Source of the DNA: a virus
Taxonomy: Duplodnaviria; Heunggongvirae; Uroviricota; Caudoviricetes
IMG/VR virus record: IMGVR_UViG_2721755711_000005
Coordinates: 1 to 13,169 of that record
Strand: one strand, 5' to 3'
DNA length: 13,169 nt
Of the stretch, positions 1-13,169 are shown in pieces (within the stretch, counting starts at the first letter, position 1; the number at the start of each line of letters is the position of its first letter). The notes below the pieces were generated by a model that saw only the letters and a program-made list of their open reading frames with translations, was not told where the DNA came from and searched no databases. A program made the position numbers and the translations under genes.

Positions 1-1242
1 ATGGCACGAAAAACCACCCCACTAACCATTACGGAGATCAAAAACGCACGGCCAGGGGAAAAGGAATACACCCTGCAGGATGGCGGAGGATTATTTCTTC
101 TGGTGAAGCCCTCCGGATCAAAAATCTGGCGTTTTACGTACTACCGTCCGGCAGATAAAAAACGGACTATTATCAGCCTTGGATCGCTGAATGATGTTTC
201 CCTGTCTGATGCCAGAGAGCGACGGAATGAATACAGGTCACTCATAGCAAAGGGAACTGACCCACAGGACCACGAACGCCGGAAACGTGAAGCAGAGAGC
301 CGGAAAAAGGGCAACACGTTCGAAAAAGTTGCCTCGGACTGGTACGAGATGAAAAAAGGCCAGAATCTGGCTTACAACACGATTAAGGATATCTGGCGAT
401 CCATGGAAAAATACGTATTCCCGTACATCGGAAACACGCCAATAGATACCCTCACCGCTCGCCGCTTTGTTGAGATACTCACCCCCATTAAGGCGCGTGG
501 CAACCTGGAAACCCTGAAACGCGTTTTACAGCGCATCAATGAGGTGATGGATTTTGCTGCCAACAGTGGTCTGATTGACATCAACACCGCCGCGAACGTC
601 CGCAAGGCATTCCCCTCACCCACCAAAAAGCACATGCCAACCATCCGACCGGAACAGCTACCACAGCTAATGCACGATTTATCGGTCGCCAGCATAGAAC
701 GGCAAACCAGATTGCTGATTGAGTGGCAGCTGCTGACCGTTGCACGCCCCGCCGAAGCAGCCGCCGCACGCTGGGAAGAAATAAACCTCGATGCCGAAAC
801 CTGGACGATTCCAGCCGGACGCATGAAGATGCGCCGTGACCATGTGATCCCCCTTTGCGGTCAGGCTATGGCTGTACTGGAAACCATGAAGCCAATCAGC
901 GCACACAGGGAACACGTTTTTCCCAGCCTTAAAAATCCGATGCTACCAATGAGCAGCCAGACCGCTAACGCTGCATTACGCCGGATGGGATACGCTGGTG
1001 TGCTGGTGTCTCACGGATTACGCGCCATATTCAGTACAGCAGCGAACGAGGAAGGATTCGAGCCGGACGTAATCGAGGCCGCACTCGCACACGTGGACAC
1101 GAACGAGGTAAGGCGAGCATATAACCGAAGTAACTACCTGGAAAAGCGCGTGGTGCTTATGCGCTGGTGGGGTGAATTTGTGGAAGCCGCAGCAACCGGA
1201 GTGACCATAGCCAGTGGTAAAAGGGGTATCCGTGCAGTGTAA
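1..1242 (+). CDS. int: Tyrosine-type site-specific integrase, P4/CP4-57 family, with N-terminal arm-binding domain
   Basis: 413-aa ORF. N-terminus (LTITEIKNARPGEKEYTLQDGGGLFLLVKPSGSKIWRFTYY) matches the DUF4102-type arm-binding domain of P4-like integrases. C-terminus carries catalytic-region motifs (HVIPLCGQA, SHGLRAIFST, RAYNRSNYLEKR with the candidate Tyr nucleophile). Window starts exactly at the ATG. Confidence 0.93.
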   Translation: MARKTTPLTITEIKNARPGEKEYTLQDGGGLFLLVKPSGSKIWRFTYYRPADKKRTIISLGSLNDVSLSDARERRNEYRSLIAKGTDPQDHERRKREAESRKKGNTFEKVASDWYEMKKGQNLAYNTIKDIWRSMEKYVFPYIGNTPIDTLTARRFVEILTPIKARGNLETLKRVLQRINEVMDFAANSGLIDINTAANVRKAFPSPTKKHMPTIRPEQLPQLMHDLSVASIERQTRLLIEWQLLTVARPAEAAAARWEEINLDAETWTIPAGRMKMRRDHVIPLCGQAMAVLETMKPISAHREHVFPSLKNPMLPMSSQTANAALRRMGYAGVLVSHGLRAIFSTAANEEGFEPDVIEAALAHVDTNEVRRAYNRSNYLEKRVVLMRWWGEFVEAAATGVTIASGKRGIRAV

Positions 1243-1343
1243 CTGTACAAAAAACCAGTACAACCAGTGCAAACCATGCTAAACCATCGTATAATCACCA
1301 CATACAGAGAGACCCGACTCTTGAAATTCAAGGAGTTATCCGA

Positions 1344-1586
1344 GTGTTTTTCAATGAAAAGGTATCCCCTGCCTATGGTGAAGGCCTTCAGTTGGCCTTA
1401 ATGGCAAATCGTGAATTCTGGTCAACGTACGATCCGGAAGACAAATCAACAGCCCCCACAAAACACGAGGTAGTCAGTTTTTTGCGCTCGCGTGGCGCAT
1501 CGAAAAATCTGGCTGAAAGCATCGACAAGGTGCTGAGACCCACCAGCCTTAAATGCGGTGGGCGACCTAAGAAGTGGAAGCGGTAA
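1344..1586 (+). CDS. Hypothetical small protein (80 aa), GTG start
   Basis: ORF with AGGAG at 1332-1336, 7 nt before the GTG, followed by a rho-independent terminator. No family recognised. Confidence 0.4.
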   Translation: MFFNEKVSPAYGEGLQLALMANREFWSTYDPEDKSTAPTKHEVVSFLRSRGASKNLAESIDKVLRPTSLKCGGRPKKWKR

Positions 1587-1591
1587 TCACA

Positions 1592-1621
1592 ATAGCGGCC
1601 CCTTGCGGTCGCTATTTTTTT
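1592..1621 (+). terminator. Rho-independent terminator
   Basis: Hairpin ATAGCGGCC / GGTCGCTAT with a 6-nt loop, followed by a run of 7 T. Confidence 0.6.
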
Positions 1622-1655
1622 GCAAAAAGAAAGCGTAATCAATGAGATAAAAAAC

Positions 1656-1692
1656 AGTGGGTACCGTTTTAAAACGGTGGGTACTGTTTTTC
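1656..1692. promoter_or_regulatory. Putative operator upstream of alpA: direct repeats flanking a 16-bp palindrome
   Basis: Two copies of GTGGGTAC(C/T)GTTTT at 1657-1670 and 1677-1690. A perfect palindrome ACCGTTTTAAAACGGT at 1663-1678 lies between them, about 65 bp upstream of the alpA start. Confidence 0.4.
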
Positions 1693-1755
1693 CCGCCCTG
1701 CCCTGTTTTACCGTATTTATCACCGGAATACGCCGGATTAATGAGGTAAAACACG

Positions 1756-1962
1756 ATGGAAGTAATCAGAAAAATTCTTACCCGTCAGGAAGTAAAAAAT
1801 ATTCTGCGCATCAAGGCAGACAGTTCGCTACAGGACATGATCAACGCCGGAAAATTCCCGAAAGGCTTCAAAATCGGTCTGCGTCGTGTTGGCTGGTATG
1901 AAGATGAGGTGCTGGCCTGGCTGAAAGAACGCGAGGAAGAAGCGCGCGGAACGGCTGCGTAA
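1756..1962 (+). CDS. alpA: AlpA-family (Phage_AlpA) transcriptional regulator / excisionase-like HTH protein
   Basis: 68 aa. ILTRQEVKNILRI...FPKGFKIGLRRVGWYEDEVLAWLKER matches the AlpA signature (helix-turn-helix followed by VGW-E-E---WL--R). GAGGT RBS 8 nt upstream. Position just after int is typical. Confidence 0.85.
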   Translation: MEVIRKILTRQEVKNILRIKADSSLQDMINAGKFPKGFKIGLRRVGWYEDEVLAWLKEREEEARGTAA

Positions 1963-2238
1963 TGGTGTGAGGCGTAACACAATGAACATAACAAAAAGCG
2001 CCCCATTGCCGGAGCGCCCTTGCGAACAATTAGCCTGCCGCACCAAAAATAAATATGTGCAGGGGAATTATATCAACCGTGTGGCGAAGCGCCACAATTG
2101 CCGGATAACGGGCAAAACAAAGGCGACCGCAAAGGGTCGCCAGTGGATATTACGGCAAATCAAACTTGAACGCATCGCCAACAATGCCACATTTGCGGCT
2201 GGTGAGCAATGTGATCAGCGTGCTGGTTTGCTGGTGGG

Positions 2239-2436
2239 CTATTCCTGCTCTTTAGCATCGCCATGCTGCGATGTTTTCCAGGTATGCGATCCCATTTTTG
2301 TGCGCCTGTACTCTTTAAGGAACTTCTCAAGGACAAACGCACATGGCGCGAATCTTTCCTGTTCATGTTCGCTTACCGCGTTTTTGCGTTGTTTTTTCCT
2401 GGATGAAGATAATTTCTTTAATGATTTGTCAGTCAT
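2239..2436 (-). CDS. Hypothetical small basic protein (65 aa), paralogous 3' end to neighbouring small gene
   Basis: Lys/Arg-rich ORF ending ...DAKEQE. Its last codons and stop share DNA identity with the 3' end of gene 2494-2673 (TCCTGCTCTTT core). Confidence 0.4.
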   Translation of the reverse strand: MTDKSLKKLSSSRKKQRKNAVSEHEQERFAPCAFVLEKFLKEYRRTKMGSHTWKTSQHGDAKEQE

Positions 2437-2493
2437 CGTAGATACCTGTAACCCTGTGCGCCACAGTTCACCGCACCACGGCGCTGGTGATGG

Positions 2494-2673
2494 TTACTCC
2501 TGCTCTTTGGCCTTGCGCCGCTGGCGGTACTCAACTTCTCGCTTTAATGCTGCTGTTACAAACTGCCCTGTACTTTCACCAGGCATTTTTACCGCCTCAA
2601 CATTGTTCATAACTTCATGCGGAACCCTTGCCGCAACTGTTTGTGATTTTGCGTTTACTGCTTTTGTCGCCAT
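2494..2673 (-). CDS. Small putative DNA-binding protein (59 aa from ATG 2673; possibly ribbon-helix-helix-like), candidate repressor
   Basis: ORF track starts at GTG 2682, but the in-frame ATG at 2673 has a GAGGGG RBS 8-9 nt upstream. Sequence MATKAVNAKSQTVAARVPHEVMNNVEAV...QFVTAALKREVEYRQRRKAKEQE has a beta-helix-helix-like pattern. Divergent from the operator at 2724-2775. Confidence 0.5.
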   Translation of the reverse strand: MATKAVNAKSQTVAARVPHEVMNNVEAVKMPGESTGQFVTAALKREVEYRQRRKAKEQE

Positions 2674-2723
2674 GTTGTGCACCCCTCACAAAAAACAAAT
2701 GCAGTATGCAGGAAAAAAAATAA

Positions 2724-2775
2724 GTGTTCAACACTTGACGTGTTTAACACCTAGATTTAAATTGGTGTTCAACAC
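2724..2775. promoter_or_regulatory. Operator: three 11-bp palindromes GTGTT(C/T)AACAC in a divergent promoter region
   Basis: GTGTTCAACAC at 2724-2734, GTGTTTAACAC at 2740-2750, GTGTTCAACAC at 2765-2775. TTGACG at 2735-2740 (-35-like) lies between sites 1 and 2; TAAATT at 2758-2763 is a possible -10 after a 17-bp spacer. Confidence 0.6.
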
Positions 2776-2872
2776 CTTATTAATGCAAGGTGCAGAAACG
2801 ACGAAACCCGGCAGTGCGCGAACACTAACCGGGCTTCTAACCACCAACGATAGCAAGATTATCGAGGTAGCT

Positions 2873-3235
2873 ATGAGAAATCATAACCAAACTAAACCCG
2901 AATTTATATACACCTTTACGGCGCTACACCGAGATCGCATGGCTGACGGCGCAACTACGGTACATGTAGCCGCTGACACGCTGGTTGATGCCAGCAGGAT
3001 GGTTAAAGAGATGGGCTACGTTGCGGCGTTCTGGAAAGGGCGCGAAGAAAACACGCTGTTTATTCAGAAATGCGAAAACAATTTTATCTGGCGTTTTATC
3101 GCCCTGAGCACGGCGCAACCGCGCATGATTACCATTGAGGCCACCAGCGAACAGGAAGCACGCCAGCAATCCCCGGCTGGCTGCGTGATGGTATTCGCCG
3201 CCCGTATTCGTCAGGGGGTGCACCATGTGCAATAA
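2873..3235 (+). CDS. Hypothetical protein (120 aa), first gene of plus-strand replication operon
   Basis: In-frame ATG at 2873 within the long ORF 1967-3235, with GAGGT 4 nt upstream. The upstream part of that ORF overlaps the two minus-strand genes and the operator, so only this 3' part is called. Confidence 0.45.
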   Translation: MRNHNQTKPEFIYTFTALHRDRMADGATTVHVAADTLVDASRMVKEMGYVAAFWKGREENTLFIQKCENNFIWRFIALSTAQPRMITIEATSEQEARQQSPAGCVMVFAARIRQGVHHVQ

Positions 3236-3455
3236 AAACACGCCGGACGCAGCAGGCGAAGCATTGAAAGTACTGATACATGCGCTTGTGGATATAAATT
3301 GCATGGTAGAGATCATGGAGAAGAAATCACAGTCGGAGTACGACAAAAGAAAATTTAAAACAATAAAAATAATTACCAAAAACTCACTGACAAAAGCTAC
3401 AGACATCCTCAATGAGGACACTAAAAGAATCAGGGAGAAACTGTGTGATGCATAA
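3225..3455 (+). CDS. Hypothetical small protein (76 aa), largely AT-rich
   Basis: ATG overlaps the stop of the upstream gene; AGGGGGTG RBS. Lys-rich product; the gene runs into a strongly AT-rich patch. Confidence 0.4.
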   Translation: MCNKNTPDAAGEALKVLIHALVDINCMVEIMEKKSQSEYDKRKFKTIKIITKNSLTKATDILNEDTKRIREKLCDA

Positions 3456-3675
3456 AATACCTTTTGATGTTCTTATTCATTCTGAAAACGCATTAATCCG
3501 CGCAAAGGAAATGGAGGCATTATTACTTAAGTTAATGGAAGTGCCGGAAAATGGCGATGAATCATATCCCATGATGTTTTCTGCCGTGCACACATTATTA
3601 ACGCCAGTAATTAACGAATTAAATACGGTGATGGCAATTCACGAGAATAATAAAGCGCATCACACCGGAGAATAA
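3448..3675 (+). CDS. Hypothetical small protein (75 aa from ATG 3448), AT-rich
   Basis: ORF track starts at 3412, but ATG 3448 has an AGGGAGAA RBS about 8 nt upstream and overlaps the stop of the preceding ORF by 8 nt (translational coupling). No family recognised. Confidence 0.45.
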   Translation: MHKIPFDVLIHSENALIRAKEMEALLLKLMEVPENGDESYPMMFSAVHTLLTPVINELNTVMAIHENNKAHHTGE

Positions 3676-3680
3676 AAACC

Positions 3681-3980
3681 ATGAAACAGAAAATTTCTGA
3701 CTTTACTGCCAGCGGCCTCCCTCGGTCTGAAATCCGCCCCGGCGATATTTTCCGGGATAACTACGGCGGCACGGTAACGATTAAACACGTGGCGGGACGG
3801 TGCGTTACTTACCGCCGTGATGGGTACGGCTATGACTGCGTGATGCCTGCTTATCAGTTCCGGCGTGATTTTTCCCTGGTACAGGCAGCGCAACGCAGTA
3901 AGCCCACCAGCAGGGAAAAAGCACGGGAAAATATTAAGAAAATAAAAAGCATGCTCAGCGCATCCAGAGGTAAAAAATGA
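3681..3980 (+). CDS. Hypothetical protein (99 aa)
   Basis: GGAG RBS upstream. Stop overlaps the start of the helicase gene (3977) by 4 nt. Confidence 0.5.
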   Translation: MKQKISDFTASGLPRSEIRPGDIFRDNYGGTVTIKHVAGRCVTYRRDGYGYDCVMPAYQFRRDFSLVQAAQRSKPTSREKARENIKKIKSMLSASRGKK

Positions 3981-5383
3981 AACTGGCACCGAACGTAAAA
4001 CTGTTACCGAAAGATAAACACACTGAGGCGGTTATTTTTGCGGGTGATAATGCTCACTCCTTTGCAGAACATTACATGATTGCACAGGCCAAAAAAGCAG
4101 GCGATCCCATCCCTCCGGTTTACCTGGGCCGTTATCAGTTAAGCGAACTGGACAACTTACAGATTGTTGATGAAGGACGATACAGAGCAAAGGTCATACG
4201 CGCCGGAAACCTGGACGATATGCAGATGCTGACCATTGCCACAAAACTGGCGATCGCCGGAGTCCAGGAGGCGCGGCTACTTTCTGAAAATTTCGAACTG
4301 CTGGAGAACTGGAGCGACCAACTACCACGACTACGGGAAACATGGGAGAGAGGGGAAAGCCTGGTCATGAATGGCAGAAAGCGAAAAATCACGCTTCCCA
4401 TCTCATGGGGTTCTGAGGGATTCGACGCGCAGCAAAGCTACGTAATTAAGGGGCTTATTCCGGCTGAATCATTATGCAGCACCTACGGCGCGAGTGGTTC
4501 CTATAAATCGTTCCTCGCCATTTCCTGGTCGTGCCATGTTGCCACAGGTATGGCATGGGGAGGCCGCAGGGTAAGTAAGGGCGCGGTTATCTATATCGCT
4601 GGTGAAGGCAGCATGGGCGTAAAACGCCGCGTAAAGGCGTGGGAGATAACCCACGACAAGGTGGTTACAGATTTGTGCATCATTAACGCGCCGGTATTCC
4701 CTGCATCGCCTGACTATGTGGAGCAGGTTATCAGGACTGCCGGACTTGTTAAGAGCAGAACGGGCGAAAATGTGCGGCTGATTGTGATCGACACGCTGGC
4801 CCGTTGCTTTGGTGGGAATGATGAAAATGATTCCCGTGATATGGGCGCATTTATCCAGGGGTGTGACGCGATAAAGCAGGCCACAGGGGCCACGGTGCTG
4901 GTGGTTCACCATTCCGGCAAGGATGAAACAAAGGGGGCGCGTGGTTCCAGCGCATTCCGTGCCGCGCTTGATGCAGAGTACCGAATCAGCCGGGAAAATT
5001 CAGACGTTACAGCACTGGTGGCGGCGTGTACGAAGATGAAGGACGCAGAGGAGCCAAAAGAAAGCGCATACGACCTTAAAAGCGTGGAGGTGTTCACCGA
5101 TACAGATGGCGAAGAGATTGTGTCTATGGTGGTGATTGACGTTCCCCGCGCCCCTGCTGAACTGGAACGCATCGAGGAGGCCGGGAACAAGACGGAGAAT
5201 CACGCCGCATTATGGCAGTGCATCAGAACGCGGACGGCACACGGGGAATCATGCACTATTGCCCTGCTGCGCGACGATATGAAAAAGCTGGGGTATGAGA
5301 TGAAGCACTTCCGGCGCTGGCTGTACAAGCTGGAAAAAGACGGCGTGATCACTATCGACGGCAATGACGTGCATCCACTGTAA
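3977..5383 (+). CDS. Replication protein with RecA-fold ATPase domain (AAA_25 / RepA-like helicase)
   Basis: 468 aa. Walker A YGASGSYKS, Walker B RLIVIDTLARCF, and a VLVVHHSGKDETKGARGSSA sensor region typical of RepA/DnaB-like AAA_25 ATPases. Immediately followed by an iteron array. Confidence 0.8.
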   Translation: MKLAPNVKLLPKDKHTEAVIFAGDNAHSFAEHYMIAQAKKAGDPIPPVYLGRYQLSELDNLQIVDEGRYRAKVIRAGNLDDMQMLTIATKLAIAGVQEARLLSENFELLENWSDQLPRLRETWERGESLVMNGRKRKITLPISWGSEGFDAQQSYVIKGLIPAESLCSTYGASGSYKSFLAISWSCHVATGMAWGGRRVSKGAVIYIAGEGSMGVKRRVKAWEITHDKVVTDLCIINAPVFPASPDYVEQVIRTAGLVKSRTGENVRLIVIDTLARCFGGNDENDSRDMGAFIQGCDAIKQATGATVLVVHHSGKDETKGARGSSAFRAALDAEYRISRENSDVTALVAACTKMKDAEEPKESAYDLKSVEVFTDTDGEEIVSMVVIDVPRAPAELERIEEAGNKTENHAALWQCIRTRTAHGESCTIALLRDDMKKLGYEMKHFRRWLYKLEKDGVITIDGNDVHPL

Positions 5384-5585
5384 AAGTGGGGGATAAAAGT
5401 GGGGATAGCGGGGAATTTAACAAAATTGAAACGCTATTCCCCACTTTCTGGCCTGTATACATCCAAAAAAGTGGGGAGTAAAAAATACAATGAAAAACAA
5501 AGAATTAGACTTACCCAAAAAACGAGGTGGGAAGCAAGTGGGAAATTTTAAAAGTGGGGAACAAAAGTGGGGGTAGTGGGGAATG
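5384..5585. repeat. Iteron array, putative satellite replication origin
   Basis: About 8 direct copies of AAAGTGGGGA-like units (5384-5395, 5395-5407, 5465-5478, 5524-5534, 5535-5545, 5549-5560, 5563-5573, 5574-5585) plus one inverted copy CCCCACTTT at 5439-5447, with AT-rich spacers, directly downstream of the helicase gene. Confidence 0.8.
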
Positions 5586-6356
5586 AATAAAGAAAATATG
5601 ACCTGTCAGGGGATGAGCTACAAAGAACGCGAAGCACTCAAGGCCTTTGCGGGGCAGTGTGAGAAGCACGGAGATATACAGAGCCTAACCAGAACGCTGG
5701 TCATGATTGCGCACTGGATGCGACAGAGCAAGGCGGTGAGTTTTACGGAATACGCCAGCCAGTGGACAGAGGCACAGCGTGAACGGAGCGACGGCAATCA
5801 CTCAACACCCGAAATGGCGAAGCAATGGCCTTTCAGTGGTAAACGGTGCATCAATCCGGGCGGATCTGATTATTACCCGTGCGGAACAGAAAAAGAGCGA
5901 CAGAATGATGAGGTGGAAATTAAACACGCAGTAACGGTAATTCTTGCCGCTTACCCATTTTTTAACCGCGATGGACTTGAACTGTACAGCCGTGATAAGG
6001 CATGGGTGCACCCACTTGATTATGCGCCCTTCATGGCGGAGGCGATGAGCTGTTTACGCTGGATAAGGGAGAACAACCTTACCGACTGTAAGATTGCATC
6101 ATTCCCTGGAAAAAATCCGACATCCTACGGCCTGAAACATTGTGTTGAGCGTGTGAATCAGAGAAGAGCTAAGGGCGACGGGCAACCAACAGAGCCGACA
6201 TACATCACAAACGGCGCATTAATCGCCGCAATGGTCGCATCGGGTTATCGGGTGAAGCGAACGGGAAGAATGAACTGCCTGTTTAATATCTCACACAAAC
6301 AGCTTAAGCGCGCACTGATGACAGGACCAGTAAAAACCGGAGAACAGACAGCATGA
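5583..6356 (+). CDS. Hypothetical protein (257 aa); start codon uncertain
   Basis: Long ORF whose stop overlaps the SSB start. Weak RBS at the first ATG; alternative in-frame starts at Met6 and Met11. No family recognised. Confidence 0.55.
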   Translation: MNKENMTCQGMSYKEREALKAFAGQCEKHGDIQSLTRTLVMIAHWMRQSKAVSFTEYASQWTEAQRERSDGNHSTPEMAKQWPFSGKRCINPGGSDYYPCGTEKERQNDEVEIKHAVTVILAAYPFFNRDGLELYSRDKAWVHPLDYAPFMAEAMSCLRWIRENNLTDCKIASFPGKNPTSYGLKHCVERVNQRRAKGDGQPTEPTYITNGALIAAMVASGYRVKRTGRMNCLFNISHKQLKRALMTGPVKTGEQTA

Positions 6357-6775
6357 CAGCACAGATAGCGGCTTACGGGCGGCTGGTGGCTGACCCGCAG
6401 TTAAAGACCACCAGCAAAGGGACACAAATGGCGATGGCGAGTATGGCGGTTCCCCTGCCGTGCAGCCAGGCAGATGACGGAACGGCGACGATGTGGTTAT
6501 CCGTCCTGGCGTTTGGCAGACAGGCCGACGCACTGGCCAGACACCACAAAGGCGAACTGGTGAGCGTGGCGGGTAACATGCAGGTAAGCCAGTGGACAGG
6601 CCAGAACGGCGAAACGCGGCAGGGCTGGCAGGTTATCGCAGACAGCGTAATCAGTGCGCGAACGGCGCGACCGGGCGGCAAAAAAGGTCAACAGGGCCAG
6701 GCTACTGACGCGCTGAACAGGGCAAAACAACAGGCGGGTAATGATGATCCGTACGGGGACAACATACCGTTTTAA
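6353..6775 (+). CDS. ssb: Single-stranded DNA-binding protein (short SSB)
   Basis: 140 aa. N-terminal OB-fold-like region (AAYGRLVADPQLKTT...), Gly/Gln-rich linker and an acidic C-terminal tail DDPYGDNIPF resembling the canonical SSB tip DDDIPF. Confidence 0.8.
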   Translation: MTAQIAAYGRLVADPQLKTTSKGTQMAMASMAVPLPCSQADDGTATMWLSVLAFGRQADALARHHKGELVSVAGNMQVSQWTGQNGETRQGWQVIADSVISARTARPGGKKGQQGQATDALNRAKQQAGNDDPYGDNIPF

Positions 6776-6811
6776 TTCACAACAGCGAACAGAGTTATTA
6801 CAGGGGAAAGC

Positions 6812-7336
6812 ATGACAAAGCTGACCATTAACCGAAAACCGAAAGGCATTTACGGCACGCTGCAGAAAACGACGCAGGCGATACAGCAGCAGGATAAAAC
6901 CACATCGGCGCATAAAGTGATACCCGGCAATCAGAACGCACAGCAGAAGCCCACAGGGGCGACACCGTGGCGGCATATGACCAAACGCCAGCGCAAAAAC
7001 CGCAGACGCGTTAATCGCCTCACTGAGATGTGGCCTGACTTATTCAGCCGGGAAGCGCCAAAACCGCTGAAGGTGGGGATATTCGACGACCTTATGCAGG
7101 ATATCGCCGTCAGGGGGCTGGCATTCGGGCCGGGGGCATTACGTGCGACGCTGGCATCTTATACGCAGTCTCCGCGCTATTACCGCGCCTTAATGGCTGG
7201 TGGGGTACGCTACGACCTGAAAGGCCAGCCATATGGGGAGGTTACACCACAGGAACAGCAGGAGGCAGAAACGCGGCTGATGGCACTGAATGAGAAGCGC
7301 AAACGCCGGGCAGCAAAGGAGAAGACGGGCACGTGA
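6812..7336 (+). CDS. ProQ/FinO-domain RNA-binding protein
   Basis: 174 aa. PLKVGIFDDLMQDIAVRG...LRATLASYTQSPRYYRALMAGGVRYDLKGQPYGEV aligns with the ProQ N-terminal FinO-like domain (PLKIGIFQDL...[35 protein letters not shown]). Basic C-terminal tail. Confidence 0.8.
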   Translation: MTKLTINRKPKGIYGTLQKTTQAIQQQDKTTSAHKVIPGNQNAQQKPTGATPWRHMTKRQRKNRRRVNRLTEMWPDLFSREAPKPLKVGIFDDLMQDIAVRGLAFGPGALRATLASYTQSPRYYRALMAGGVRYDLKGQPYGEVTPQEQQEAETRLMALNEKRKRRAAKEKTGT

Positions 7337-7608
7337 TTCACGACAGCAAAGCGGAAGAACTGGAGGCTAAAGGGCTGTACCGAAGAGCGGCGGCGCGGTG
7401 GGCTGAGGTTATGCAACTGGTGAACACCGATAAGGAGCGCGAACAGGCGGCAAAGCGTCGCGCGGAATGTATCCGTAAGGCAGCACGCTCACCCGTTATG
7501 GCGGATAACTTCGGGGCGCTGAAAGAGGCTGTAAACCGCACTCATGCGGTGATGGGGATGGAAGACGCGGGTAAATCCGTCTGGCGGAACTACCCGAAGC
7601 AGCCCTGA
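7333..7608 (+). CDS. PerC/Pch-family transcriptional activator-like protein, GTG start
   Basis: 91 aa. KAEELEAKGLYRRAAARWAEVM...EREQAAKRRAECIRKA...AVNRTHAVMG matches my recollection of the PerC/Pch signature (LE-GL-RRAA-W--VM...RR--C...NRT). AAGGAG 11 nt upstream; overlaps the stop of the ProQ-like gene. Confidence 0.65.
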   Translation: MIHDSKAEELEAKGLYRRAAARWAEVMQLVNTDKEREQAAKRRAECIRKAARSPVMADNFGALKEAVNRTHAVMGMEDAGKSVWRNYPKQP

Positions 7609-7705
7609 CAGTAACCAGTGATGCCGGATATTATCCTGAAAAATGGCCATCACTCCCGTGGGCGGATAACATAAAATCCCGCATATGCGCACATACACAG
7701 ACGAA

Positions 7706-7728
7706 GCCGGAACACTCCGGCTTTTTTT
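7706..7728 (+). terminator. Rho-independent terminator ending the replication operon
   Basis: GCCGGA-ACAC-TCCGGC hairpin followed by a run of 7 T. Confidence 0.75.
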
Positions 7729-7805
7729 ACGGGTCCTCCTGATGGGGTACCCTTACCGCGGGGCGACGGACGCGCGGAAAACGGCTAATTTTTGAATTTT
7801 TATCG
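7722..7805 (+). repeat. cos-like element A (cosQ-like plus degenerate cosN-like), paired in inverted orientation with 12515-12595
   Basis: TTTACGGGTCCTCC...CGCGGGGCGACGGACGCGCGGAAAACGGCTAATTTTTGAATTTTT resembles the bona fide cos at 8548-8640. Its reverse complement recurs at about 90% identity at 12515-12595. Confidence 0.6.
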
Positions 7806-8074
7806 GTCATCACCACCAGCGCAATTTATTGATAATGAAGGTTAAAAAAATTCCTGGTGTCGAAAACGCCTGTTTTTTGTTCACCACTGAATCATGCCGC
7901 ATCACGATAACCCACAAGGCTGGTGGTGATGCGTTATGCTCCCTACGTTGCCATCCTCCTGACCTCATGGCATTATCCGGCGTGAACGAGCGGTTATTCT
8001 CCGTACTCTTAATCGTTGTTCATGGTTATTTGCTTTGTGGTAGCTTACATTTCCTGATGGTTATTATCCTTCCA

Positions 8075-8098
8075 CCCCGTAATCACGGGGTTTTTTTT
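8075..8098 (+). terminator. Rho-independent terminator in the non-coding region upstream of cos
   Basis: CCCCG-TAATCA-CGGGG hairpin followed by a run of 8 T. Lies inside the compositionally implausible ORF 7829-8167. Confidence 0.55.
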
Positions 8099-8547
8099 GT
8101 CTGCGATTTGCCGTTCTCCGTTGCGCTGGTGGTAACGTCACGACATGTCACCATCACGTCACGCTGATGGCGAAAGTCAGGGTTAACCAGTACCGGAACG
8201 GGTAGCCCGATGTACTGTTACCGTTCTGCTGGCTGGTGGAGTAATTGATAACGGTTATCATCAACGGGAGGGGTGGATCAAATCCCTGTAGTCCTGGCTG
8301 TCAGGGACCGCCGCCCAACCCTTCTTCACATCGCCGCAGGTTCGAAAACTTTTTTTTGGGAAGGTGCGCACAGACTTGATAGATAAAACCTATCAGACAA
8401 AACCACGCCAACCCCGCGCCATTGCTGGCATCGTTAAAAAAACTCACTCCACCAGCAGGCTAAAAAACCGTGATTTTTCCGGTTTTATGGGCTGAAAAGG
8501 GGCTCCCTAAAAAACACCTCTTACACTGCCGGACAGGAGCGGTGGCT

Positions 8548-8770
8548 TTTCACGGGTCCTTTCCGGGGATCTGAAACACCACGGGGCGGCAGACGCGCAG
8601 ATTTTCACTATTTATGAAAATTTTTCAGGGAAAAAGCATGTCGGTACTTCTTGCATGTAACATTATGTTTTTATTGCAACTAACTATCATAAACATACGA
8701 CACCATAACGCCGGAAAATCCCGTTTTTCAGGCGTTTCATGTCGGAGGTGGTTTTTGATGAGGATTTGAT
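8548..8770 (+). other. cos: Lambda-type cos site: cosQ-like (8548-8583), cosN (about 8584-8595), cosB (8596-8770)
   Basis: TTTCACGGGTCCTTTCCGGGGATCTGAAACACCACG|GGGCGGCAGACG|CGCAGATTTTCACTATTTATGAAAATTTTTC closely parallels the phage lambda cos junction as I recall it (...TTTACGGGTCCTTTCCGGTGATCCGACAGGTTACG|GGGCGGCGACCT|CGCGGGTTTTCGCTATTTATGAAAATTTTCC), and sits immediately upstream of a Nu1-like gene exactly as in lambda. Confidence 0.85.
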
Positions 8771-8772
8771 AA

Positions 8773-9357
8773 ATGAATGTTAACAAAAAGAGACTGGCGG
8801 AGATTTTCGGTGTTGATCCGCGCACAATTGAGCGCTGGCAGATGCAAGGGCTTCCCCATGTATCTGGTGGCGGAAAAGGTGTGGAGGTGACTTTCGACTC
8901 TACACAGGTGATCGAATGGTATGTACAGAGGGAGAAGGAGATCGAAAACGAAAAACTCCGCAGGGAGCTTGATGATTTACGTGCTGCTGGTGAATCAGAT
9001 TTACAGCCAGGCACAACAGAGTACGAACGCTACCGTCTCACCAAAGCACAGGCGGACGGGCAGGAACTGAAGAACGCCAGAGAGACAGGGGAAGTTATAG
9101 ATACTGAGTTCGTACTCTGTGCGCTTCGTGGACTGGCGAGTCAGATTTCTTCGATCATGGATAGTTTGCCGCTCACAATGCAAAGGCAGTTCCCCGGGAT
9201 GACTCCGGCAATGCTCGATGGCCTGAGGAAGGAAACAGCACGAGCCTGTAATGCGTGCGCTAAAACTGCCGATAACCTACCCCGCATTCTGGAAGACTAT
9301 CTGATGGAAACAACCGGAAACGTGCCGGAGAAGTTACGGCAACAGAAAGGTGAGTGA
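8773..9357 (+). CDS. Nu1-like small terminase subunit homologue (satellite packaging-redirection protein, Rpp-like)
   Basis: 194 aa, collinear with lambda Nu1 along its whole length: [28 protein letters not shown]...[12 protein letters not shown]...[11 protein letters not shown]...[28 protein letters not shown] versus Nu1 MEVNKKQLADIFGASIRTIQNWQEQGMP...GGGKGNEVLYDS...[11 protein letters not shown]...[28 protein letters not shown]. No large terminase gene follows. Confidence 0.9.
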
Positions 9358-9383
9358 CAACCGCGCAATTATTGAACAAAACT

Positions 9384-9442
9384 AAGAAAGGATCTGATAA
9401 CGTTATTTTTGGCCCAAAATGACCACTGTCAGATCCTTTCTT
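9384..9442 (+). terminator. Perfect 14-bp inverted repeat hairpin after terS (possible terminator or protein-binding site)
   Basis: AAGAAAGGATCTGA (9384-9397) and TCAGATCCTTTCTT (9429-9442) with a 31-nt loop, followed by TTTTTCTG. The loop is unusually large for an intrinsic terminator. Confidence 0.4.
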
Positions 9443-9494
9443 TTTCTGATGATTTTACGATTAAACAATGAGTTACAGAGAAGAAGAACGGATC

Positions 9495-9586
9495 TGACTT
9501 TTCCCGAAAAATTTTCATAAACAGTTAAGAATTGCGCGTATCCGTACCCCCGGCGCTCAAGATTCTGGAAAGGACCCGTGACACCT
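9495..9586 (-). repeat. cos-like element D, inverted copy of the cos region, downstream of terS
   Basis: Reverse complement reads GTGTCACGGGTCCTTTCCAGAATCTTGAGCGCCGGGGGTACGGATACGCGCAATTCTTAACTGTTTATGAAAATTTTTCGGGAAAAG, which parallels cos 8548-8632 in its cosQ core, its GC-rich centre and its TTTATGAAAATTTTTC block (roughly 75% by eye). Confidence 0.6.
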
Positions 9587-9590
9587 GACC

Positions 9591-9614
9591 AACAAAAAAG
9601 CCCCCGAAGGGGGC
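9591..9614 (-). terminator. Rho-independent terminator of the minus-strand toxin-immunity operon
   Basis: GCCCCC-GAA-GGGGGC hairpin. On the minus strand it is followed by TTTTTTGTT, immediately 3' of the immunity gene stop (9619). Confidence 0.75.
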
Positions 9615-9618
9615 TAAA

Positions 9619-9867
9619 TTACGCATCTTTAAAACTGGGTTTGCCATTAGCTAAACGCCAGGTTTTAACTTCTTGTACGATGGCTTCCGGGCTATCGTCT
9701 TTTCCGTTCTCTGGATAAAAAATTAGATCAGAGCCTGATGGATGTTCAGAGAGGCGCCTGAATTCTCTGACTAACTGCTCGCTTTCTTTTTCTGTTCCTT
9801 CTGCATTACATATTTTTCGAACAAGATCTAAGAATTCATTTTCAGTATAGTCGTTTATTGTTTTCAC
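9619..9867 (-). CDS. Colicin/pyocin DNase immunity protein (Im7/Im9 family)
   Basis: 82 aa, GTG start. [82 protein letters not shown] aligns along its full length with Im9 (...[79 protein letters not shown]). One nt separates it from the toxin stop. Confidence 0.92.
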
Positions 9868-9868
9868 G

Positions 9869-11560
9869 TTATTTTCCCCTGTGAATTTCTATATGCCGCT
9901 TTGGTGTTGTGATACCCATATTATCAACGTTATAAACTTCGCCCCCCTCACTTATAGGTTTAATATGGTGTATCTCGTAACGTTCCCTCCCACCAACTCG
10001 ATCCACTTCCCTTGTGAATGGTGAACGTCCTTTGCGAATGTTCGTGAGGTTGTGTGCTCTGAACTGTCTTGACAAATCAGCATCGTTTGCCACTTCTGCC
10101 CAAAATGCCTCCCTGAATCGATCAAAATTCGCAAATGTTCGCCCACGCATCCGCTCCGCAATCTGGCTGGGTACTGGTGCACCATTTCCCTTATCGGCAT
10201 CCACCAGCCACGCCCCGCTAATTTTTTGTCCTTTCCCTGTTACCTGCCCGGCGTTATTCCTGATGTAAATATAAATCGGCGGTATATCCGGGAATGGCAG
10301 GATCAGAATGTAATCCGCAAAATCCTTTTCTTCCGGGGCCGGGCTGGTTGTGGCGTGTAATCCCGTGTCATCCGGTAACGGGTCCACCATCACCGGATTC
10401 GGCAGCACTGGCGGGTACTGATTTCCCGTGTGGTACGGTACATCAATCCCCGGATTATCCGGCGTCCAGATGAGTGTGATACGCGGGTCTTCCTCCGTGG
10501 TGAACGTGTACGCCTTTCGTCTGTCGTCCCACTCCATCCGGCGCACGCGCACCCTGTCCTGTCCCGGTGGCGTGTGCCAGCCATGCGGCACGGGGTTCCC
10601 CCGGCTGTTCGTCTCCCAAGTAAAGCGAACACGGGTAGGCACTTCCCTGACCTGTTCGGCCCTCATACGGTCGATAAAATCCTGCTCCCCGTCATTCAGC
10701 CGGCCGGGCATCATCCCTATCAGAAACGCCGCCAGTGGCAGCCCCGCAACCCCGGTCGCGGTTTCGCCCACGACGGCCCACGTTCCCCGGATGGCAAAAT
10801 TTCCCGCCACCGGACGCAGAACGCTCGCCCCGGCAATTGCCGCTCTGGCCCGTTGTGCGCGCTCCGCTTCCTCAACCGCACGCTGATAATCCATTTCCTC
10901 GTGATGGCCGTTCCACCATTTCCACAGTGCACTGCGTTTCTTCGGCTTCGGAATATCCTCCGGCGCAATCAGTTTTTTCTTTTTGACCGCCTGTGCACGC
11001 TGCGGGGCTTCCGTGTCTGTCACCGGGTCAGTCTGCGGAACGGCCTGATAAATCCCCATCGGTGCAAAGTTGGTATGCGGCTCCCGCTGGTCGCCCGCGT
11101 CGTTGCATCCCGCACCGCGCAGACAGGATTTTGCAAACACCCGGTTACGTTCCCGTTCTTCCTCCCGGCGTTTTTCTTCAGCTTCCCGTTCTGCCCTGCG
11201 TTGTGCTATCAGTTCCGCCTGTTTTTTCTGTGCAATTTCTGCCGGCGACGGCCCCGCCCCCATCCACTGACCGAGCGGGGCAATAATCCGGTTTGAACCT
11301 TCAGGGCAGCCACAGTGAACAACACAGCCATCAACGGCAATGGGAATATCTATCACCTTAAAACGGGCTTCTCCTTCTGCCACCATGCCGGGCTTTCCGC
11401 ACGCCGGGCAGGGAGTGGTTTTGTCTCCCTTACGAATAAGACCGTTACCACAGACGTTGTAGTTAGGGACAGGAAGGGAAGTAATCAGCCATGCGCCGGT
11501 GGTGGTTTTGTCACAGGAAAGCGCCATTCCCCTGCCGTGTATATCCGGTCTGTATGTCAT
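9869..11560 (-). CDS. Polymorphic toxin: Cys-rich N-terminal domain, charged linker, central domain of unknown function, C-terminal colicin E9-type HNH DNase
   Basis: 563 aa. The C-terminal ~130 aa ([49 protein letters not shown]...[55 protein letters not shown]) align with the colicin E9 DNase domain, including the HNH motif. N-terminus has multiple Cys ([16 protein letters not shown]). GGAG RBS 8 nt upstream; ATGA overlap with the upstream gene. Confidence 0.9.
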
Positions 11561-12045
11561 GGCTTACACTCCGGCACCAGAAAATCCGCTGGCATACTTT
11601 CGCCTTCACGACAACAAAGTAACGTTATTCGCTGCGGCGTACTGATAATCTCATCCCCGTTATCCAGTTGGCTGCCAACCAGAGCATACCCTTTTCCGTG
11701 ACAACTGAACGCACTGCCGGAACCGCTGATAATACGGGCCGTAGTGCCGTCCTGATACGTCACCTCATCCCCGACCATCGCCATTTCTGCCATCTCTCCG
11801 GTGCTGTCAGCGACTTCGCAGCCGGAACTGGCGGAAGACACCACCCCGCCATTACGGGTAAGGCTACCGGTAGTGGCATGTCGCCAGATAGCCACAATCG
11901 GATGTTGACGGCAAAATTCCTCCTGCTCCCTGATTATCGCCAGCGCATCATCGGACATATCAGCAAGCGCTTCCTCTGTGAAAGGGGATTTATCCAGTTC
12001 TGCCAGTACATCGGCGGTCAGTTCGTTGGTATATTGCTTCATCAT
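11557..12045 (-). CDS. Hypothetical protein (162 aa) co-transcribed with the toxin: acidic helical N-terminus, Gly/Ser-rich C-terminal half, Cys cluster; candidate PAAR-like partner, adaptor or chaperone
   Basis: First gene of the minus-strand operon, translationally coupled to the toxin by an ATGA overlap. C-terminal half AMVGDEVTYQDGTTARIISGSGSAFSCHGKGYALVGSQLDNGDEII is loosely reminiscent of PAAR-type repeats; ends with LLCCREGES...PECKP. Confidence 0.6.
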   Translation of the reverse strand: MMKQYTNELTADVLAELDKSPFTEEALADMSDDALAIIREQEEFCRQHPIVAIWRHATTGSLTRNGGVVSSASSGCEVADSTGEMAEMAMVGDEVTYQDGTTARIISGSGSAFSCHGKGYALVGSQLDNGDEIISTPQRITLLCCREGESMPADFLVPECKP

Positions 12046-12514
12046 GTTTCTGTTTTTCCTGTGGTTAACAATCGACCAGAATCATAATGAAAGGGAATGC
12101 AAAAAAATTGATGGATATCAAAATGAAAAATAAAATCATCCCGGTAAAACAGGATATCTACCCCACCAGCATCCCTGGATTTTCAGATAGTTGCTTTTAG
12201 CCTCTGAACAACATCTGCTGGTGGCTGATAATTACAATAATTCCTGCCCCCTGGCGTTTCTGAGCATGTTTACCGCGAATTTTGCGCAAAACACCTTAAC
12301 AATTCTTAAATTTTAAAAACACTTCAGTGATAAGCATCACCGCTCCCGCTCACATTTGACACAGGCAACTCCATCTGGCAGGTGAAAATCAAATTTATTT
12401 ATATATTTCAATTGATTGTAAACTGGTCTAATGACAGGGGAGAAAAAAGACTGTACAGGTGAAAACAGAAATAATTCTTAATTATCAATGAATTATCACA
12501 CATGCTGCCGCCGC

Positions 12515-12595
12515 CATGAAAATGCAAAAACTAGCCGTTTTCTGCGCATCCGTCGCCCCGCGGTAAGGGGCACCCCACCGGGAGGACCCACGACG
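12515..12595 (-). repeat. cos-like element C, inverted partner of element A (7722-7805)
   Basis: Reverse complement CGTGGGTCCTCCCGGTGGGGTGCCCCTTACCGCGGGGCGACGGATGCGCAGAAAACGGCTAGTTTTTGCATTTTC matches 7726-7805 at about 90% by eye. Confidence 0.6.
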
Positions 12596-12884
12596 ATCAG
12601 GGAGTTTTATCAACGTCGTGTGTTATGCCGGATTAACTGCGTACGTAATACGTGCACATCCCGGACAGGAGCAGCCAGAATCAGCGCCGCTGACGTTGTT
12701 TTGTGGTTATCCCCCTGTCATGAATCATCGCAATGGTTTTATGTGTTCTGCGTTGCGCTGGTGGGTTATTCCACCATTGGTGGGAAACATGGCACCACAT
12801 CCACCAGCTTAAACGCGCTTCACCTTCCCGGCATCAGTCGCCACAATTACGGCATTGCTTTCCATCACCACGGAGGCCATGACC

Positions 12885-13169
12885 ATGACCGAAGCCGAAA
12901 TGCTCAAAATGATTCGCCGTGCTGCCGGAATCAGCCAGGCAGCAGGCAAACAGGAGGCCACGCAACCGGACAGCGTGATAGCCGAAAATTACGCGCGTGT
13001 GGTGGCTGATGTGATGCGCCGTGACGGTATCGAGCTTAACGGCGTGGATATGCGCGATATACGAACCAGAGTTCTCGAGTTGCTGGCATGTCGTCGCCGT
13101 TCTCAGCAACGGAGGGAGAGCGCGAAAAATACTTACCAGTGGAAGAAGCCGGAGCGGTTACGGCGGTAG
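12885..13169 (+). CDS. Hypothetical protein, 3'-truncated by the window end
   Basis: The ORF runs to the window edge. GGAGG at 12872-12876 is 8 nt upstream of the ATG at 12885 (the ORF track starts at 12855 with no RBS). No family recognised. Confidence 0.4.
   Translation: MTEAEMLKMIRRAAGISQAAGKQEATQPDSVIAENYARVVADVMRRDGIELNGVDMRDIRTRVLELLACRRRSQQRRESAKNTYQWKKPERLRR

Follow-up and report, generated by a model that had tools for sequence, protein, structure and literature searches.

A putative packaging-signal hub with three cos modules between perC and terS of a phage satellite

We analysed a stretch of 13,169 nucleotides (virus record IMGVR_UViG_2721755711_000005 of IMG/VR, positions 1 to 13,169; hereafter the window), with the focus on 7770-8547, a region between perC and the gene of the small terminase subunit (TerS). 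Judged by its gene content, the window is a phage satellite of the phage-inducible chromosomal island (PICI) type: family searches of its proteins found int, alpA and a replication module in this order, and no lysis or tail genes. It is closely related to chromosomal islands of Escherichia coli, mostly of Shiga toxin-producing E. coli (STEC) and animal isolates, and to IMG/VR contigs of 11-14 kb; the best match of the focal region in a complete genome is only 88-92% identical. We collected 20 copies of the locus (the window and 19 others) and counted conservation on the 17 distinct variants among them. An initial annotation had described 7770-8547 as noncoding DNA upstream of a cos site, with an internal terminator, and had proposed a candidate small RNA or a packaging accessory region. 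All the features that it listed are present, and family and protein-database searches bore out that the region holds no credible protein gene. The region is not an anonymous spacer upstream of cos, however, as 7773-7890 is the cosB arm of the cos to its left (cosA) and 8243-8470 is a third cos of a different kind; both had been missed. Its start at 7770 even falls inside cosN, because the cosN-like site of cosA occupies 7761-7772. Since the region holds two further phage-derived cos modules, the proposal of a packaging accessory region gains support beyond the evidence first given for it.

A blastn search against 50,697 phage records revealed three separate matching patches in 7600-8780 and no phage homology for 7880-8260 and 8385-8560. 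The first patch (7724-7889) aligns with the cos of phages 1720a-02, CP-1639 and mEp460 (E ~1e-20), the match to 1720a-02 being 76% over 166 bp (E 1e-20). It corresponds to cosA, a complete lambda-type cos at 7731-7890 on the plus strand, which is composed of cosQ GGGTCCTCC (7731-7739), the cosN-like site GGGCGACGGACG (7761-7772) and a cosB arm (7773-7890). The "cos-like element A" of the initial annotation is thus real. Its sequences GGGTCCTCC (7731-7739) and CGGGGCGACGGACGCGCGG (7759-7777) match those of lambda, 21, 1720a-02 and mEp460 column by column, and its layout is of the lambda type, with a partially two-fold symmetric cosN about 30 bp downstream of the cosQ heptamer. No terS follows it. 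Full-length homologs of cosA were found in 1,234 of 5,426 complete E. coli genomes. To the left of cosA, all relatives keep a constant flank, a plus-strand hairpin at 7706-7729 (GCCGGA-ACAC-TCCGGC followed by T7), which we read from the sequence as the likely terminator of perC and which the terminator scan did not list.

The second patch belongs to an orphan cos of the HK97/capsid-forming PICI (cf-PICI) type, which was placed at 8243-8470 on the plus strand from blastn, an alignment with the HK97 end and a cf-PICI match. The patch itself (8243-8393) is 81% identical over 151 bp (E 6e-30) to the intergenic region between the HNH and terS genes of phages vB_EcoS-689R5 and phi467. It covers this intergenic region completely, and the homology stops at the phage terS start codon (annotated as small terminase in 689R5). 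The match of cosA to 1720a-02 stops about 30 bp short of the gene preceding the large terminase gene, which is annotated only as "hypothetical protein". Because the homology in both cases stops within tens of bp of the gene after cos, whole cos modules were captured minus the following gene. The core GGATCAAATC...GACCGCCGCC can be aligned with the right end of HK97. This places the HK97 end junction at ~8318/8319, on the conserved GACCGCCGCC, and predicts a 10-nt overhang at ~8309-8318. HK97 ends are known to carry 10-nt 3' overhangs (PMC9410871).

Homologs of the HK97-type cos occur in ~1,069 of the 5,426 E. coli genomes, nearly always adjoining an HNH gene. One homolog with no HNH annotation under the match lies in a cf-PICI of strain S22EC, the HNH gene of which is ~3 kb upstream. 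The cos region of this element has 77.9% identity over 8266-8470 and thus reaches further right than the phage match, and this cf-PICI also carries the right-end gene of the window (12885-13168, 91%). No HNH, P27-family terS or large terminase (TerL) gene was found in the ORF (open reading frame) list and family searches of the window. The HK97-type cos is therefore an orphan, which could act as a cos of this kind only with HNH, TerS and TerL from a helper. Across the 17 variants its proportion of variable columns is 0.19, compared with 0.37 overall. The motif GGTTCGAA at 8340-8347 was considered as a tRNA remnant and rejected, as a tRNA/tmRNA search found none and the motif belongs to the phage-shared part of this cos. 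An 80-bp piece (89%) of the HK-type cos was also seen in another island, that of E. coli PI7 (L032, 1-2600), ~120 bp downstream of a DUF1441 gene and a gene for a ClpP-protease/major-capsid fusion.

The third patch (8547-8780) is the cos that had been recognised at the outset, a phage-21-type cos at 8554-8772 on the plus strand. Its cosQ starts at 8554 and is followed by cosN (8584-8595), R3 (8634-8649), the IHF site I1 (8658-8670), R2 (8692-8707) and R1 (8735-8751), with identities to the phage 21 sites of 14/16 for R3, 11/13 for I1, 10/16 for R2 and 13/17 for R1. The adjoining gene (8773-9357, plus strand) encodes a Nu1-type TerS (Pfam Phage_Nu1, E 8e-68), which is 61% identical to phage 21 gp1 and whose N-terminal domain matches the solved DNA-binding domain of lambda TerS. 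The terS ATG lies at +190 from cosN, the same spacing as in phage 21.

Comparison of the window with itself (blastn) revealed inverted partners of cosA and of the 21-type cos on the minus strand. The outer one, at 12516-12589, is an inverted copy of cosA (88% to 7731-7803, E 2e-19) that has cosQ and cosN with a different inner arm. The inner one, at 9472-9581, is a lambda-type cos (74% to 8550-8661, E 7e-12), so that this pair brackets terS. The cosB of the latter resembles lambda R3/R2, and its divergent cosN, GGGTACGGATAC, is unlike the 21-type cosN at about half its positions, which places the two inner cos sites in different specificity types. Among the relatives, the two cos-bounded segments occur in all four orientation combinations (L002, L006, L008, L015, L016, L019 and others). 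The outer rearrangement relative to the window is not a simple flip at the cos repeats, since the inner arms and the cargo differ too. The crossover points vary among relatives and lie inside conserved blocks of the repeats such as TTTATGAAAATTTTTC; in L019 the 21-type cosN is joined to the lambda-type cosB, and in L015 the reverse is found. Precise terminase cut-and-rejoin at cosN was rejected as the inversion mechanism, given the varying crossover points and the inner cosN overhangs that differ at about half of their positions. The rearrangements fit homologous exchange at cos better than cut-and-rejoin at cosN.

About 150-175 bp left of the HK97-type cut site lies an array of phased GTCAC(G) repeats (8136-8163, plus strand), with three copies here, four in relatives and a spacing of 10-11 bp, which is a candidate protein-binding array. 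The direct repeat and palindrome noted earlier are part of it, with CGTCACG at 8136-8142 and 8157-8163 and GACATGTC at 8142-8149, at most 2 bp from the positions first assigned. A similar array of four GTGAC copies stands upstream of cos at a similar distance in the cf-PICI L027, and no GTCAC/GTGAC array was seen in the HK97-like phages examined. The proposal that the repeats are a cf-PICI-specific TerS site could not be established, as the GTGAC module also occurs alone, without a cos core, in E. coli 042 and other genomes. One 10-bp GTCAC unit of the relatives is missing from the window. Positions 8130-8137 and 8143 form an indel hot spot, at which 9 of the 17 distinct variants (L001, L007, L013, L015, L018, L019, L020, L023 and L024) carry ~90 extra bp with a hydrophobic stretch in one frame.

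The 13.2-kb window contains 19 Chi sites (GCTGGTGG; e.g., at 1163, 1540, 2230 ... 12801), about equally on both strands, compared with 0.42 expected from shuffles. This density is ~6-fold the E. coli average, and the relatives are likewise rich in Chi. Five of the sites lie in the focal region: 7813-7820 (minus strand), 41 bp right of the cosN-like site of cosA; 7919-7926 (plus), kept in most relatives; 8125-8132 (plus); 8232-8239 (plus), ~80 bp left of the HK97-type cut site; and 8449-8456 (minus), ~130 bp right of that cut and invariant in a six-sequence alignment. Judged by the established polarity of Chi, each faces the nearest cos cut in the orientation that RecBCD recognises on entry from that end. 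The Chi richness suggests that linear or rolling-circle satellite DNA is protected from RecBCD, and the element has no recognisable Gam. Just upstream of the Chi site at 7919, 28 bp that can form a hairpin (GATACCnGG...CCnGGTATC) are missing at 7905/7906 in the window and its closest relatives.

Between cosA and the HK97-type cos, a candidate transcription unit was found on the plus strand. A promoter scan matched a sigma-70 promoter candidate at 7948-7976 (TTGCCA, a 17-bp spacer with TGn, and CATTAT, i.e., an extended -10). The candidate RNA of ~115 nt (7982-8098) consists of a 14-bp 5' hairpin (7982-8023), a second hairpin (8024-8045), a variable linker and an intrinsic terminator (8074-8098; ACCCCGT-AATC-ACGGGGT plus T8, with a 7-bp stem, 5 G-C pairs and a 4-nt loop). 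This is the strong terminator reported initially; the scan places its stem-loop at 8074-8091, followed by T8 to 8098. The plus-strand transcript that was said to end there also stands as a candidate, but its start is predicted at ~7982 and not directly after cos-like element A. With its own promoter and terminator, the predicted unit falls within the 50-300 nt range of small RNAs. Its conservation is uneven: the promoter hexamers and TGn have 0/15 variable columns and the spacer 8/14 (Fisher p=0.0007), and within the RNA the counts are 5/64 for the first 64 nt, 15/28 for the 28-nt linker and 2/18 for the terminator stem-loop, against a regional mean of 0.37. Such a pattern is the one that a promoter followed by a functional 5' RNA segment and a terminator would leave.

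The unit always accompanies the HK97-type cos block, and the stretch between its promoter and the 21-type cos keeps its colinearity in each of the 20 copies, whatever has been rearranged at the flanks. The satellite-specific middle part (7906-8243) was found in 27 E. coli genomes. A wider search for the RNA module with a 20-mer gave 0 matches in 185,579 species-representative genomes, and the module was also found in 7 metagenome and 7 IMG/VR contigs, all of them close relatives. P0004 was considered as a divergent form and rejected, as the module is interrupted there and Mu-like prophage genes follow. In one E. coli genome (L029, 8001-12200), the module is broken after the fourth codon, with Mu-like genes (gpT, protease, Mor, Gp27) downstream.

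The only long reading frame of the region also deserves mention. The 112-codon frame at 7829-8167 exists and runs through the terminator, as had been stated, and the odd composition ascribed to it holds in a mild form (AT skew of -0.23 to -0.29 over 7801-8250). It has zero matches in Pfam, NCBIfam and PHROG, and its 4 matches in a database of 5.8 billion proteins are all translations of the same DNA family in near relatives. A stop codon that reads TAA or TGA in the other relatives is TTA in the window, as it is in three variants that belong to its lineage, and the reading frames are broken among relatives by the 28-bp indel at 7905/7906 and by a 1-nt indel within the terminator. We therefore rejected a protein reading, since the frame was created by the TAA-to-TTA change and relatives differ there by these indels; it is an accident of the window's copy.

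We interpret the region as the core of a packaging-signal hub with three cos modules for several helper types, to which we assign a probability of roughly 0.6. The three complete modules, all in the same orientation between perC and terS, are copies of intergenic cos regions from different packaging lineages: cosA from that of 1720a-02/mEp460, the middle cos from the HNH-dependent HK97/cf-PICI lineage, and the third from that of phage 21, which would be read by the TerS that the satellite encodes. The terminase of whatever helper is present would cut its cognate cos and package satellite concatemers, which would widen the helper range. What the comparisons show is homology, anatomy, a pattern of conservation and variation in orientation among relatives; that each cos is used is inferred. 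The Chi sites flanking the cut sites would stop RecBCD that enters at a cos-cut end, and a satellite-specific mini transcription unit, if transcribed as predicted, would be embedded in the hub. Candidate helpers are common, because roughly a fifth of the E. coli genomes have a cos that matches cosA, and a similar share have one that matches the HK97 type.

Several points weigh against a hub. Each cos copy may be an inactive relic. The cosN of cosA (GGGCGACGGACG) and that of the 21-type cos (GGGCGGCAGACG) are unlike each other and unlike that of lambda, and relatives differ in the 10-nt core of the cut site in the HK-type cos. Two lambda-type cos sites that face the same way, 820 bp apart, might yield incompatible ends if one terminase cuts both. 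Extra cos sites can be a burden, because in EcCICFT073, where cos1 and cos2 are both functional, deleting cos2 increased transfer (PMC6092414; PMC6739421). Conservation is weak evidence of function here, because the family is shallow (~10% divergence), and the argument from Chi orientation concerns five sites and was made after seeing them.

The main rival is recombination debris, that is, exchange among PICIs, cf-PICIs and prophages at cos that left non-functional cos copies and filler, so that only the 21-type cos with its terS matters. The mosaic boundaries do lie at or near cos sites, the crossover points vary within cos repeats (L019, L015), and relatives differ by indels of 28 bp, 10 bp and ~90 bp. 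A cf-PICI has both the HK-type cos and the right-end gene (91%), fitting descent of the cos from a cf-PICI-like ancestor. In addition, cos is reportedly a classical recombination hot spot in lambda Red crosses (Stahl laboratory). However, entire cos modules have been kept, from cosQ or core up to where the phage terS would start. The HK-type cos and the promoter/RNA block are moreover the most conserved parts of the region, and the block order is identical in all 20 copies although the flanks are rearranged. We therefore regard debris as an unlikely, if serious, explanation and prefer the packaging hub.

Equally unlikely in our view is that a trans-acting small RNA (~7982-8098) is the functional element, possibly as a ligand of the satellite's ProQ/FinO-domain protein, and that the rest is incidental. 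The candidate small RNA of the initial annotation does gain from the contrast between invariant promoter hexamers and a variable spacer, from the near-invariant first 64 nt and from the conserved terminator. The predicted fold, with its 14-bp 5' hairpin and terminator hairpin, is stable (z -2.25), and the three substitutions in the 5' hairpin all preserve pairing. FinO/ProQ proteins usually bind their RNA partners via terminator hairpins (PMC9977716). The three compatible substitutions are all one-sided, however, with 0 compensatory pairs among 12 distinct sequences of a shallow family, and three such changes have a chance expectation of ~0.2, as estimated from hairpin pairs and random transition triples. 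The covariance-model search that had been proposed as a check gave no family for the region: nothing in Rfam 15 reached the gathering score, and the best permissive hits (E-values of 0.9-3.8) are far below the family thresholds. For the loop of the 5' hairpin, only chance-level target matches were found in the window and helper-type loci, none of them convincing. The RNA and the ProQ/FinO protein are not obligate partners, because 325 E. coli genomes have the protein gene and only 27 the RNA module. A small RNA would also leave the two extra cos modules unexplained. It stays a candidate, which we would place inside the packaging hub.

The same conserved block could instead encode a 21-residue hydrophobic peptide, MNERLFSVLLIVVHGYLLCGS, e.g., a membrane-active toxin or interference factor, of which the window's copy would be a pseudogene; this is doubtful. 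The block coincides exactly with a 21-codon ORF of the relatives (7982-8047), and the conservation is bounded by its start (ATG/GTG) and stop (TAA/TGA) codons. Two of its four internal substitutions are synonymous third-position changes and two are non-synonymous, and RefSeq annotates a 47-aa ORF in the same frame in STEC316. Against this, no Shine-Dalgarno sequence precedes the ORF in any variant. The ORF ends in a stop in 13 of the 17 variants; the other four, which include the window with its GTG start and a stop changed to TTA, have lost it while the promoter, hairpins and terminator are intact. Variation at the synonymous sites is far lower than in the neighbouring linker (5/64 vs 15/28), a sign that the RNA or the DNA itself is under constraint, and no family match was found. 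The features of a type I toxin-antitoxin pair are missing as well: the ORF is broken and lacks a Shine-Dalgarno sequence, and no antisense RNA gene was found, the promoter and terminator scan showing neither element on the minus strand in 7900-8100. Because of the missing Shine-Dalgarno sequence, the frozen synonymous sites and the stop lost beside intact RNA features, we regard it as a genuine candidate for a transcription unit, the product of which could be a small RNA, a 21-aa peptide or both.

Least probable by far is a cis-regulatory leader, attenuator or target of a helper Q-type antiterminator that gates read-through into cos/terS in the manner of lambda PR'-tR'. In the window, the unit does share its polarity with terS and has a strong terminator ~115 nt after the promoter, with no other strong one before terS. 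But the terS segment is often inverted relative to it in relatives (L008, L015, L019), the tested phage late-promoter regions show no similarity, 7880-8260 has no phage match, and variation is highest in the promoter spacer, to which Q binds in lambda.

A bolder form of the packaging hub can also be envisaged, which we consider improbable. The battery of cos sites might allow packaging by three unrelated machineries, including the cf-PICI terminase and its small capsids, which would make the element a satellite of a satellite. Recombination between inverted cos sites might at the same time flip segments, re-pair cosQ/cosN with other cosB arms and re-orient terS, acting as a switch of helper specificity at the population level.

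Cos-type PICIs are thought to be tied to a single helper packaging system through a copied cos, Rpp or their own TerS. Lambda-, 21- and HK97/cf-PICI-like cos modules lined up side by side suggest a cheap route to a wide helper range. Since the element carries a PAAR/pyocin DNase toxin, helper range also matters for how toxin and defence cargo spread. The inverted cos pairs and the excess of Chi bear on RecBCD survival and on the reshuffling of packaging modules by satellites, and the small conserved transcription unit would be an uncharacterised satellite gene that accompanies the HK97-type cos.

The remaining genes agree with a satellite, of which the window covers 13.2 kb and is open at its right end. 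They encode a tyrosine integrase (int, 1-1242), AlpA (1756-1962), a DUF4222 protein (3681-3980), an AAA_25/RepA-type helicase (3977-5383), SSB (6353-6775), the ProQ/FinO-domain protein (6812-7336) and PerC (7333-7608). On the minus strand follow a colicin/pyocin immunity gene (9619-9867), a PAAR/pyocin-S DNase toxin gene (9869-11560) and a PAAR protein gene (11557-12045). This cargo operon (9619-12045) closes with a hairpin and T run at ~9595-9617, and relatives have a DUF1441 gene or different cargo in its position. The right-end gene (12885-13168) belongs to phrog_1561, to which no function is assigned, and has 91% DNA identity to the gene after terL in a cf-PICI (L027, 7432-7715). The SSB gene is common to the capsid-forming PICI as well (85%). 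A direct repeat of 36 bp (89%; 5381-5416 and 5549-5584) directly downstream of the helicase gene is possibly the replication origin.

Multiple cos sites in a PICI and satellites that copy a helper cos are already known, and it is the combination that we did not find described: in the literature, our coverage of which is incomplete, no lambda-, HK97/cf-PICI- and 21-type cos in one island and no inverted cos pairs with natural inversion isomers were found. The element shares with FinP/FinO and similar pairs a mobile-element setting in which a FinO-domain protein stands near a structured candidate RNA with a strong terminator hairpin; it differs in that the RNA is not antisense to any identified gene and co-occurs only weakly with the protein gene (27 vs 325 genomes). 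The cos-Nu1 module of phage 21 and lambda is matched in cosQ, cosN, R3, I1, R2, R1, terS at +190 and TerS (61% to gp1), but no gpA (TerL) gene follows terS, cosN differs at 4/12 positions and an inverted lambda-type cos lies just after terS.

Cos PICIs of the EcCICFT073 type likewise have int, alpA and more than one lambda-like cos with phage-like cosQ/cosN, depend on helper terminase and capsids, and include islands in which PerC alleles were noted (Fillol-Salom 2018, 2019; PMC6092414, PMC6739421). In contrast to them, the window lacks an Rpp gene; what it has is a cosB arm of phage type, a Nu1-type TerS of its own together with a 21-type cos, and an extra HK97-type cos. The DUF1441 protein of relatives, whose gene adjoins the corresponding cos, was tested as an Rpp and gave no PDB match at E<=0.001. 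The cf-PICIs (e.g., EcCIEDL933; bioRxiv 10.1101/2022.09.08.507074) resemble the window in the middle cos (78-85% identical to the S22EC cf-PICI cos region), in homology that continues right of the phage terS position, in the right-end gene and roughly in genome size as far as an open-ended window allows; they differ in their capsid, protease, portal, HNH, P27-type TerS and TerL genes, all absent here. SaPIbov5 and P4, which carry the cos of their helpers as cited in the same preprint (bioRxiv 10.1101/2022.09.08.507074), resemble the proposed hub in that an orphan helper cos is used with helper terminase, in an HNH-dependent system in the case of SaPIbov5. They have one cos type for one helper family, whereas the window has three types in tandem and inverted partners of two.

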